Shown one piece after another: positions 2,811 through 56,075 of a stretch of 61,691 nucleotides of DNA. A program made the translations under genes and the position numbers. A model generated the notes under the pieces. That model saw only the letters and a list, made by a program, of their open reading frames with translations. It did no database searches and was not told the DNA's origin. Position 1 is the stretch's first letter, and every line of letters starts with the position of its first letter. The stretch comes from Candidatus Moraniibacteriota bacterium. Lineage in GTDB: Bacteria > Patescibacteriota > Minisyncoccia > Moranbacterales > GCA-2747515. The stretch lies in NCBI GenBank assembly GCA_038208115.1, contig JBBQZC010000007.1, positions 1 through 61,691 on the forward strand, given 5' to 3'.

Positions 2811-3551
2811 ATGCACGATTATTATACATCACTTGAAGATGCGAGATTAGAAATTCAAAAACGTTGGCAAAACGAAGAATTGAAAAAAAAGGTGAGCGCC
2901 TATCTTGGTGGTGATATTCCTGAACCGTTTTTAAGTGAGCCTCGTGCTGTGTTGGCACGTAACATAGCATCTCCTGACAATGAATTTATGTATTTTTTAG
3001 AGCTTTCAAAAAAAGTTGCTCTTGAGCCAATTAGTTTGGAATATGTTCATGACAAGTTTTTTACAATGAATACTGACAAGATGGCGTATGCGAAGATGCA
3101 GTTTATGAATGATGTAAGACAAATTCATACAGTGCAAATTGTTGATTTTGGAATGTATGATAAAAAGAGATTTGTCGATATAAATACAATAACAGGTGAA
3201 AGCTTAGTAGACTTTCATCATCGTATATTGAATGAATTTGTGGGAAACCAATATAAAACACAAAATATATATGATATGTCAGAGTGGTATCACCGGAGAC
3301 ATGGTCGATCAGTAGATTATTACCGATATTATGTGGCACTTTTTGTGTGTCATGGAATATTATTTGAAAATTTTGTCACGGATGATTCGGAGGCAGGATT
3401 TGAAAAAAAAATTGTTTTGCCTGCATTACAAGAAATACAAAAACGTTTTGGATTTAAGCCACTAATCGTTCCATTAGCGCCAGATCCAACTGATGCATAT
3501 TGGTGGAGTTATTCTGATGTTCTTGAAAAATATGTGAACTTCAAAAATTAA
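2811..3551 (+). CDS. conserved hypothetical cytoplasmic protein (~245-aa family, seen twice here)
   Basis: Intact 246-aa ORF, paralogous to the upstream pseudogene. Extended -10 TGATATAAT near 2764-2772. Confidence 0.85.
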   Translation: MHDYYTSLEDARLEIQKRWQNEELKKKVSAYLGGDIPEPFLSEPRAVLARNIASPDNEFMYFLELSKKVALEPISLEYVHDKFFTMNTDKMAYAKMQFMNDVRQIHTVQIVDFGMYDKKRFVDINTITGESLVDFHHRILNEFVGNQYKTQNIYDMSEWYHRRHGRSVDYYRYYVALFVCHGILFENFVTDDSEAGFEKKIVLPALQEIQKRFGFKPLIVPLAPDPTDAYWWSYSDVLEKYVNFKN

Positions 3552-5272: not shown

Positions 5273-5384
5273 ATGATTCTGTAAAAAGAAAAGTTTATAG
5301 AGTTTAGAAAGTAAAATTTACTCCCAAAAAAATGAGAGGAATTTTTGGTTGATAAGCGTGTTTTGTGGTGATAGTAAGGGTGCA

Positions 5385-5530
5385 CTTAAGAAGTGCTTCG
5401 AAAGGGGATTTATTCAAAGATTCTCAGTGTCTGGTTGGATGTGACTTTTACATTCAAACGCCCCCCTGCGCCAACGCCAGACACTGAGAATCATCTCAAC
5501 GCCTTGCGGCTTACCGTAAGGCTTTTTTAT
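5385..5530 (+). ncRNA. candidate structured ncRNA or palindromic element upstream of the secE promoter
   Basis: Perfect 16-bp inverted repeat 5419-5434/5477-5492, then a terminator-like hairpin 5501-5522 plus T6. Confidence 0.4.
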
Positions 5531-53517: not shown

Positions 53518-53712
53518 TCATCAGATAAAAAAACGACGGAAACATATTATGTCTTTTGTCGTTTGTAACAAGCTGTGCATTAGCGACTAAGTTTGAGATT
53601 TGATTATTGATTGTAAATCTACATGTTCTCGATTTGATGTAAAATGTTGTATAGCTATATCGTGTAGTAATATTTTTTGTATCAATGGTTGATATAGATA
53701 TTACAGATGTGT

Positions 53713-53774: not shown

Positions 53775-54080
53775 ATGTCACTGGCATGTTTTAAGAATGA
53801 AAAGGCTATGCGGGAATTGTCAGAAACGGCAGATTTTTTGAAGGTGATTGCCGAAGAAAATCGTCTTAAGATTCTATGCATGCTAAAAGATGGAGAAAGA
53901 TGCGTGTGTGAAATTTGGCAGTATTTGGATTTGCAACAAAACCTCACATCACATCATCTAAGGATATTAAAAGATTTCAAATTGATATCATCGCGCAAAG
54001 ATGGTCTGAAAGTTTATTATTCATTAAATAAAAAAATGTTCAATGCACATATAAAATTATTAGTAAATCACTTACGATAA
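53775..54080 (+). CDS. arsR: ArsR/SmtB family repressor
   Basis: RLKILCML...CVCEI...SHHLRIL...GL. Confidence 0.9.
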   Translation: MSLACFKNEKAMRELSETADFLKVIAEENRLKILCMLKDGERCVCEIWQYLDLQQNLTSHHLRILKDFKLISSRKDGLKVYYSLNKKMFNAHIKLLVNHLR

Positions 54081-54084
54081 AATT

Positions 54085-55053
54085 ATGAATATCTTTTATC
54101 CTATACAATTATTTTCCGACCTCATTACGTATCACGCATTTGGTTTATCACATGATGAGTTACTTGGTGAAGTAATAAATTATTTTATCTTTGATGTGAT
54201 AAAGATATTTATTCTTCTCGGAATTATTATATTTGTTGTATCTTTGATACGATCATATTTACCACAAGAAAAAATTCGCAACATACTTGCATCTCAAAGT
54301 AAGGTTGTAGGGCATATTTTGGCCTCACTCATTGGCATTATTATGCCATTTTGCTCTTGCAGTGCAGTGCCGCTTTTTTTGGGGTTTGTAGAAACAGGTG
54401 TACCACTAGGAATCACATTTTCATTTTTGGTTGCAGCACCAATGATTAATGAAGTGGCTCTTGCAATGCTTTTTGGCAGCTTTGGATTGAAAGTTGCACT
54501 CATTTATATTGGAAGTGGTCTTCTGATTGCAGTGGTGTCTGGTATGGTAATCGGACATTTGAAAGTGGAATATCTCTTGGAAGATCTTGGACATGGTAAG
54601 AGATATAAAAAAGATGAGAGCATGATTAAAATGACATGGGAAGATCGTGTGAGTTATGCATGGAATTATTCAATTAAGATTATAAAAAAAGTTGGTGTAT
54701 ATATTGTGATTGGTGTGGGTCTGGGTGCATTAATCCATGGGTATGCACCTGCAGATTTTTTGGCGCAGTATGCTGGAGCAGATAAATGGTATGCCGTGCC
54801 ACTTGCGACTCTTGTAGGAATTCCATTGTATTCTAACGCTGCTGGTGTGATGCCAATCGTAAATGTGCTTTTTGAAAAAGGTGTAGCGCTTGGAACGGTG
54901 TTAGCATTTATGATGGCAGTCACAGCTTTGTCATTGCCAGAATTTTTGATTTTGCGAAAACTGATGAAGCCAAAACTCATCATGATTTTTGCAGGAGTTG
55001 TGGGCGTGGGGATTATTTTTACAGGCTATATATTTAATGCAATTAAATTGTGA
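54085..55053 (+). CDS. DUF318/ArsP-type permease
   Basis: PFCSCSAVP, FLVAAPMINE, GIPLYSN, ALSLPE. Confidence 0.9.
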   Translation: MNIFYPIQLFSDLITYHAFGLSHDELLGEVINYFIFDVIKIFILLGIIIFVVSLIRSYLPQEKIRNILASQSKVVGHILASLIGIIMPFCSCSAVPLFLGFVETGVPLGITFSFLVAAPMINEVALAMLFGSFGLKVALIYIGSGLLIAVVSGMVIGHLKVEYLLEDLGHGKRYKKDESMIKMTWEDRVSYAWNYSIKIIKKVGVYIVIGVGLGALIHGYAPADFLAQYAGADKWYAVPLATLVGIPLYSNAAGVMPIVNVLFEKGVALGTVLAFMMAVTALSLPEFLILRKLMKPKLIMIFAGVVGVGIIFTGYIFNAIKL

Positions 55054-55156
55054 AATATTGATTAAATAGTTGATACAAAAAATTGAAATTTGTGATAATG
55101 TGTGAAGAGAGTCACTGTTATTGACAGATAGATGCATGCGGTGTAGTCTGCGTATA

Positions 55157-55352
55157 AGATTTTCCGAGTGTGGGCATATATCGTGCTAAGTCGTTTGAGG
55201 ATTTTTTCTCCGCTCACGAGCACATGCAATGAGAAAATCTAGGGGTTTGACACAATTCCATCCTGGGAGAGCGTGATTCTCCTGCTGTTCTTTGAGCAGA
55301 GTTATAACCCCGGGGCATCGAGAGTACAGTGTACTACTTTTGATGCCTTTTT
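55157..55352 (+). ncRNA. candidate standalone structured ncRNA (~190 nt)
   Basis: TTGACA-17-TAGTCT promoter upstream; nested stems AGATTTTC/GAAAATCT and GGGGTT/AACCCC; terminator GGCATC...GATGCC plus T6; no substantial ORF. Confidence 0.5.
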
Positions 55353-55422
55353 TAATTTTCTTTGATTTTATTTAACTTCTAATATAAAATATGAGTAATT
55401 GTTGATTTATAATGATTGATTT

Positions 55423-55836
55423 ATGAGAACGAAAGTAGTCGTGATTGGATTAATTGAGAATGATGAAAAGCAGTTTTTAATCAATCAACGATTTGATCCA
55501 AGGATCGCAGATGCACATATGAAATGGGATTTCTTCGGAGGAATGATCGAATTTGGTGAATCTCCTGAAGACGCACTAAAAAGGGAAGTCAAAGAAGAAT
55601 CGGGATTAAACATACAGATTGGTGAAATGATACCACAGTGTTATTCACGGATATGGAATCATGATGACTATAAATTACATGTAATAGTGTTGTGTTATCG
55701 CTGTAAATTGATAGATGGTGTATTAAAAATCGGAGATTATAAAATTCATGCTGTGAAATGGATAAGTAAAACAGAATTTAAGGATCTTGATTTTCTTCCA
55801 TCGATAGATCTATTTTTAAAAGCGATAAATTTTTAA
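55423..55836 (+). CDS. NUDIX hydrolase
   Basis: GGMIEFGESPEDALKREVKEESG Nudix box. Confidence 0.93.
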   Translation: MRTKVVVIGLIENDEKQFLINQRFDPRIADAHMKWDFFGGMIEFGESPEDALKREVKEESGLNIQIGEMIPQCYSRIWNHDDYKLHVIVLCYRCKLIDGVLKIGDYKIHAVKWISKTEFKDLDFLPSIDLFLKAINF

Positions 55837-56075
55837 AAAATAATTTTTGATTAAATAACTCATGATAAGTATATAATTTCGTGTATGAGTCAAACACGTG
55901 CATGTGATCATGATAAAGTATGTCTTTAAGCACTAATTCTTAAGAAGAATTGGTGCTTAATGCGTACTAAATTTGTTTGTTGAAAATGTAAAATGGATGT
56001 ACAATGGAATGTAACAAAATATCGCTTAAGCATAAAAACAAATTTTACATTAATTAATCAATAACGACGCGTTCT

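Follow-up and report, generated by a model that had tools for sequence, protein, structure and literature searches.

A GC-rich block between arsP and a NUDIX hydrolase gene of a Moranbacterales genome as a possible orphan small RNA or 3'-UTR-type transcript

The enterobacterial RNAs CpxQ, SroC and MicL are small RNAs that share a terminator with, or derive from the 3'-UTR of, a longer transcript. For RNAs of this type, conservation extends across genera, function requires Hfq or ProQ, and both targets and expression have been verified. More widely, it is common for bacterial small RNAs to be confined to one species or genus. Among cis-acting RNAs, some riboswitch variants, for example ykkC subtype 2c, precede NUDIX genes. 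A different line of work starts from base composition: in AT-rich genomes, a high GC content of intergenic regions is an established mark of the templates of structured RNAs (PMC8632094). Here we analyze a GC-rich block between an arsenic-type operon and a NUDIX gene in Candidatus Moraniibacteriota bacterium. If transcribed and functional, it would join a very short list of small RNAs proposed in CPR/Patescibacteria, where the usual RNA chaperones seem to be missing, and the variable gene slots of these tiny genomes would then carry non-coding cargo of their own.

The window, that is, the whole stretch of DNA analyzed (61,691 nucleotides), comes from a genome of 1.32 Mb in 40 contigs with 37% GC. 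The candidate block lies on the plus strand within a 369-bp spacer (55054-55422) between arsP and a gene encoding a NUDIX hydrolase of 137 aa (55423..55836, plus strand; Pfam NUDIX, 6.1e-17). Directly 5' of it, the plus-strand genes arsR (53775-54080; Pfam HTH_5, ArsR family, 2.2e-14) and arsP, encoding a permease (54085-55053; Pfam ArsP_1, 1.1e-73), form a two-gene arsenic-type operon (53775..55053). An imperfect, AT-rich direct repeat of 40 nt with 70% identity is found at the 3' ends of arsP (55014-55053) and of the NUDIX gene (55811-55850) and flanks exactly the 797-bp unit formed by the block and the NUDIX gene; it may be a product of chance.

The block extends from ~55100 to ~55345 with a GC content of 42-53% between flanks of 15-30%, and its borders are sharp, with steps from 17% to 42% at ~55100 and from 47% to 20% at ~55340. 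By peak GC, the spacer that contains it ranks 33rd of 451 intergenic regions, a ranking from which only ORFs of at least 90 aa were removed, so that some of the regions may be small genes. At least 18 of the 32 spacers of higher peak GC hold tRNA, rRNA or RNase P RNA genes, and the tmRNA is found at similar GC. The block has little coding potential: the longest overlapping ORFs encode 55 and 34 aa in minus-strand frames and 30 aa in a plus-strand frame. An earlier note, made from the sequence of this stretch, had described the element as richer in GC than its flanks and devoid of a substantial ORF, and both statements hold. The possibility that the block is a coding remnant was considered and is unsupported: tblastn of the ORFs of related loci and of the slot genes described below gave nothing above 23 bits against the block, blastx of the block against the genome's own ORFs returned self-matches only, and two matches near E 5e-5, obtained when phmmer compared the 61-aa longest open frame (minus strand) with 1.84 billion representatives, were both tandem-repeat-protein artefacts. 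The other five frames were compared with local sets only.

The promoter scan reported a plus-strand promoter-like site, TTGATA-18-GATAAT with TG and 10 of 12 matches, at 55070-55099, immediately 5' of the rise in GC; an RNA initiated near 55106 would be ~245 nt long. It also reported TTGATT-17-TAAAAT at 55362-55390, on the same strand, between the terminator and the NUDIX start codon, which points to a separate promoter for the NUDIX gene. Overall, the scan found four matches in the region, against 6.8 expected from shuffles. The promoter-like site singled out in the earlier note, TTGACA-17-TAGTCT, was located by reading on the plus strand, where both the motif and its 17-nt spacer are present (TTGACA 55121-55126, TAGTCT 55144-55149). 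The -35 hexamer is perfect, but the site begins at 55121, 2 nt away from the start that had been given, its -10 hexamer matches TATAAT at only three of six positions, and the promoter scan did not report it. A start derived from this site, near 55156, would sit at the foot of the first predicted domain. The GC rise begins 5' of TTGACA-17-TAGTCT and just 3' of the site at 55070-55099.

A perfect 14-bp inverted repeat (ATTTTTTGTATCAA / TTGATACAAAAAAT, at 53672-53685 and 55070-55083) brackets the arsR-arsP operon, and its right arm makes up the -35 half of TTGATA-18-GATAAT, the promoter-like site ahead of the GC rise; ~0.1 such repeats are expected by chance in the region. An ArsR operator common to the block and the arsR promoter was considered and set aside, as it comes down to this 14-bp inverted repeat, the meaning of which is uncertain.

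At the 3' end of the block, the terminator scan and the fold both identify an intrinsic terminator on the plus strand with a 15-bp stem and an 8-nt loop followed by a T-run (hairpin 55312-55349, element to 55352), in agreement with the earlier reading of a terminator after the second domain. The terminator scan found no terminator-like site between the arsP stop codon and 55312.

The minimum free energy (MFE) fold of 55150-55352, at -66.9 kcal/mol, is identical to the centroid and comprises three consecutive independent domains. Domain 1 (55157-55240, plus strand) is an interrupted hairpin of 84 nt closed by AGAUUUUC/GAAAAUCU; it is well defined, with an MFE frequency of 0.32, and reproduces the long interrupted hairpin previously proposed at these positions. 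Domain 2 (55242-55311, plus strand) is a three-way junction of 70 nt, made of P1 (GGGGUUUGAC/GUUA.AACCCC), P2 (GGGAGAG/UUCUCCU) and P3 (CUGUUC/GAGCAG), in which a 13-nt single-stranded stretch, ACAAUUCCAUCCU, links P1 to P2. The junction closed by GGGGUU/AACCCC that had been proposed is thus recovered. The inner registers of the fold are slightly different from those of the earlier note, because two registers compete. The terminator forms the third domain, and the loops of the MFE fold are UUUU, CGUGA and UUU, in addition to the 8-nt terminator loop.

The stability of these domains was compared with that of 300 dinucleotide-preserving shuffles per segment. Domain 1 has a z of -1.55 (24 of 300 shuffles fold as well), domain 2 a z of -1.96 (8 of 300), and the two together a z of -1.63 (18 of 300). 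Neither domain is therefore significantly more stable than shuffled sequence. The terminator has a z of -5.45, which none of the 300 shuffles equals. The whole element reaches z -3.05, a value attained by 17% of 586 intergenic 200-nt windows of the genome (mean z -1.37, SD 1.94), and this value comes mostly from the terminator, since the domain scores are weak and that of the terminator is strong. Similarly, the energy gap between the plus and minus strands reflects composition (G+T richness) and not selection at the RNA level, as shuffles reproduce the gap. The definition of the fold is more unusual: the MFE structure accounts for 8.1% of the ensemble for domains 1 and 2, compared with a shuffle median of 0.5%, and only one of 200 shuffles is as high. 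The features above chance are therefore no more than the terminator, the GC-rich block itself and the good definition of the fold; two domains are predicted, but with no evidence of selection maintaining them. In an AT-rich genome, the signal behind a convincing fold between a promoter-like site and a terminator can thus be nearly all terminator and GC content.

Other GC-rich regions of this genome share some of these features. A second GC-rich structured element, at 5330-5530 of the window (plus strand), lies between a gene of 569 aa and secE-nusG; its long hairpin, CTCAGTGTCTGG ... CCAGACACTGAG, precedes a terminator, CTTACCGTAAGGCTTTTTT, and the element has a z of -5.07 in the genome census and matches no Rfam family. 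About 13 further intergenic regions have a peak GC at least equal to that of the candidate and no Rfam match at E<=0.01, among them C3:13740-14629, C3:90765-91182, C14:28327-29084, C15:23607-24852 and C3:14948-15781.

With regard to known RNA families, a search of the whole window against Rfam at gathering score gave no match for the block, and sub-windows of 701 nt and 261 nt searched at E<=10 returned only unrelated families, the best with E 0.7-9. ARAGORN found no tRNA or tmRNA in the window, and the RNase P RNA and the tmRNA of this genome are encoded elsewhere, at C21:3184-3720 (105.9 bits) and C6:46256-46875 (112.8 bits), respectively. The Rfam comparison recommended in the earlier note thus leaves the block without a family, and the statement that it is not assignable to tmRNA, RNase P, SRP RNA or a known riboswitch is borne out.

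A divergent housekeeping RNA, 6S or SRP, deserves mention because the models for these RNAs are blank in this genome: RF00013 (6S) has no match in the region at E<=10 nor in the genome, and RF00169 and RF01854 (SRP RNA) have none in the block (E<=10) nor in the genome. The block is also, like 6S RNA, near 200 nt, non-coding and highly paired. It nevertheless has unpaired ends in place of a closing stem, no central bubble, and three independent domains, and a GNRA-capped or GNAR motif resembling SRP helix 8 is absent from it, both by reading and by motif regex. Furthermore, none of the 11 congeners has a counterpart, which a housekeeping RNA should have, making such a role unlikely, and no SRP RNA is to be expected since the SRP proteins also appear to be missing from the whole genus. 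Both candidates were rejected on these grounds. We regard a housekeeping RNA as very improbable and the identity of the block as 6S or SRP RNA as effectively refuted, so that the earlier suggestion of a divergent 6S-like RNA falls.

The situation of the SRP in this genus is an observation in its own right. RF00169 matches none of the 12 genus genomes, one of which is a single contig, and RF01854 has no match in the source genome. The Ffh/FtsY GTPase domain (PF00448) is found in 0 of 12 genus genomes vs 14 of 14 control genomes, and an E. coli Ffh query gave no match in the source genome by tblastn and phmmer, under conditions in which the positive control worked. On the basis of these profile and sequence searches, the whole genus appears to lack the SRP system (Ffh, FtsY and SRP RNA). 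A quick literature search found no description of SRP loss in CPR. This apparent genus-wide loss is more consequential than the RNA candidate itself.

Homologues of the block were sought at several taxonomic depths, which together covered the 11 other species of the genus and about 1,100 further Patescibacteria genomes. BLAST against 60 relatives, including the 11 congeners, and against 400 genomes of the class gave only chance matches of 23-31 nt. A gene with an ASCH domain, matched twice by BLAST, was discarded as a coincidence of nine residues (MRKSWGLTQ) that does not extend. A single-sequence covariance model built from the block and its fold recovered only the block itself in 300 genomes of the order, 400 genomes of the phylum and the 11 congeners (E<=5). 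No homologue lies beside the arsP orthologues or the NUDIX orthologues, plasmid and phage collections hold no match, one junction 20-mer searched against metagenome and genome contigs gave four chance matches in unrelated organisms, and nhmmer found no paralogue in the genome itself, where the block is single-copy. The search in CPR genomes that the earlier note had advised, carried out here by BLAST and by covariance model, was therefore unsuccessful, and in the absence of a homologue no alignment, and hence no covariation, can be obtained. As judged from these comparisons, the block is a single-copy, species-specific orphan of a single genome and not a member of a conserved structured-RNA family. 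Of the earlier proposal of an undescribed CPR non-coding RNA, the part that no known family matches stands, while a CPR-wide distribution does not.

These searches also bear on whether the block is the founding member of a new structured RNA class, whose other members have not been sampled or have diverged beyond the reach of a single-sequence model. The GC block, the dominant fold, the three-way junction with its long single-stranded joining region and the missing Rfam match are what such a class would offer at first sight. We nonetheless consider it improbable: neither the 11 congeners nor the further Patescibacteria genomes contain a homologue, there is no paralogue, and helix stability is at chance level. 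A more specific form of the idea, to which we give similarly little credence, takes the block for the first sampled representative of a new, narrowly distributed RNA, composed of a hairpin and a three-way junction with a 13-nt joining strand, which a Moranbacteria-type CPR lineage would have acquired along with a NUDIX cassette and which would serve as an Hfq-free trans regulator or as an unconventional sensor. At best, the block would be a species-specific small RNA or the tail of an mRNA, rather than a conserved RNA class of a new kind.

The position of the block 5' of the NUDIX gene raises the possibility of a cis-acting leader, either a riboswitch or a protein-dependent attenuator, in which domain 1 or domain 2 would sense the signal and the terminator would be the expression platform. 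The layout is the expected one, with a promoter, a structured region and a terminator followed by a same-strand gene 70 nt downstream, and the order of promoter, three-way-junction domain, terminator and NUDIX gene resembles that of ykkC subtype 2c (RF00442 fold) and of terminating riboswitches, the former being known to precede NUDIX genes. The predicted behavior of the terminator is different. In co-transcriptional snapshots it folds alone, its 5' strand pairing with nothing upstream, and when it was forbidden in a constrained folding that searched for an antiterminator, the 5' strand stayed unpaired, 18.6 kcal/mol were lost and no alternative helix appeared. Because the terminator folds independently and no helix competes with it, termination would be constitutive, not that of a classical riboswitch. 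No ykkC or other riboswitch model matches the block even at E<=10, and an additional promoter-like site lies 3' of the terminator, ahead of the gene.

The NUDIX orthologues point the same way. None of 40 related genomes encodes a relative of the NUDIX protein above 37% identity; its closest relatives, 66-69% identical, are encoded on other metagenomic Parcubacteria-type contigs, with different neighbours (FtsH, a radical-SAM gene, KilA-N, MacB). The collections searched contained no genome of the same or a sister species, the cluster of this protein having one member only. At eight such orthologue loci, no leader matches or aligns with the block. Among six distinct NUDIX loci, four (L024, L026, L028 and L030) share a conserved upstream sequence unlike that of the block, and two (L029 and L031) have only short spacers. 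Given the missing competition, model match and conservation before the orthologues, we hold a leader of the NUDIX gene to be decidedly improbable. Homology between the block's terminator and those of the orthologues was also considered and rejected: the terminators of L024, L028 and L030 are related to one another, and not convincingly to that of the block. As a separate observation, the closest orthologue (69%) is directly preceded by a GC-rich segment of ~190 nt (L024 2655-2860; JGI contig Ga0376277_0000460), which lies between a promoter-like TGTTATAAT and a terminator and adopts a different, multi-hairpin fold with a z of -2.2. This segment does not align with the block of the window and has no Rfam match.

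On the arsP side, the orthologues of two congeners share 74% (G004) and 72% (G011) identity and stand in conserved synteny, in the order arsR, arsP, a slot, a glutaredoxin-like gene, a gene of 182 aa and a membrane protein of 622 aa, and onward to rmlD. The slot is variable: it contains a hypothetical gene of 408 aa in G004 (L076, 7409-9332), a Ser_hydrolase gene and the 408-aa gene in G011 (L077, 10500-12668), and the block with the NUDIX gene in the source genome (window 55054-56075). Because the content of the slot varies and the upstream regions of the NUDIX orthologues differ, the block is a conserved partner of neither arsP nor NUDIX. Near another arsP orthologue, in G037, a putative leader of the SAM-I riboswitch type was recognized by eye (TTATCAAGAGCGATGGCAGAGCACTGGC...CCGGCAACC; L013, ~3060-3270), downstream of arsP and 5' of metK.

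The variability of the slot brings forward a second interpretation, namely that the block is inert leftover DNA with a working terminator, a residue of the recombination that placed the NUDIX gene in the slot. It would be foreign DNA, or the unrecognizable fragment of a former gene, not yet decayed to the AT-rich composition of its surroundings, with the terminator as its only functional part and with helices such as any sequence of this length and 45% GC would yield. Slot content that changes among congeners while the flanking synteny holds is consistent with this interpretation, as are the absence of the block from every relative searched and domain stabilities at the level of chance. Several features are less easily accommodated: no frame shows protein similarity (the longest against 1.84 billion representatives, the rest against local sets), the borders in GC fall at a promoter-like site and at the terminator, and the fold is unusually well defined. 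We consider leftover DNA unlikely, while recognizing it as the close rival, second in rank, of an orphan transcript.

The interpretation that we rank first, and put forward tentatively, sees in the block an orphan small RNA or a 3'-UTR-type transcript of the arsR-arsP operon. To judge from the sequence, it is most likely present in RNA. Since no terminator intervenes between the arsP stop codon and 55312, transcripts of arsR-arsP should extend through the block to the terminator, and one or both of the promoter-like sites at 55070-55099 and 55121-55149 may start an independent RNA of ~200-245 nt. All such transcripts would end at the hairpin and T-run of 55312-55352. According to the computed fold, this terminator should act constitutively and thereby shield the NUDIX gene, which would be served by its own promoter-like site. 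The product could be an independent RNA, a structured extension at the 3' end of the arsRP mRNA, or the two together.

An orphan transcript is favored by the sharp borders of the GC block within an AT-rich spacer; by a strong plus-strand terminator with none earlier after the arsP stop codon, together with promoter-like sites on the same strand; and by a fold that dominates its ensemble in a segment with no ORF, no protein-remnant signal and no antiterminator. Against it weigh the lack of a homologue in the genomes searched, and hence of support from covariation, and also domain stabilities near those of shuffles, a z that 17% of intergenic windows reach, and the weak -10 box at 55144-55149. 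The lack of conservation is itself compatible with a small RNA, because such RNAs are commonly confined to a species or genus. Complementarity to potential targets was modest, with an 8-bp seed to arsR as the best and one exact 13-mer elsewhere, both estimated to be near chance, and the single-stranded junction has no convincing target beyond chance. The Hfq proteins of E. coli and B. subtilis and E. coli CsrA, used as tblastn queries, matched nothing in the genome, and any trans-acting mechanism would have to do without them.

Compared with described systems, the block resembles the regions collected by GC-IGR pipelines in being a long GC-enriched spacer in an AT-rich genome; these pipelines name motifs only where homologues show covariation, so that a block without a homologue would stay unclassified there (PMC8632094, PMC6429828, PMC11109978). 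It differs from RNAs of the CpxQ, SroC and MicL type in that it is not conserved, has no convincing target and occurs in a genome in which no Hfq or CsrA homologue was found. Its likeness to these 3'-UTR-derived and terminator-sharing small RNAs resides in its architecture: the block directly follows the last gene of an operon, ends at the only intrinsic terminator of that operon, and contains internal promoter-like sites that could give rise to an independent short transcript.
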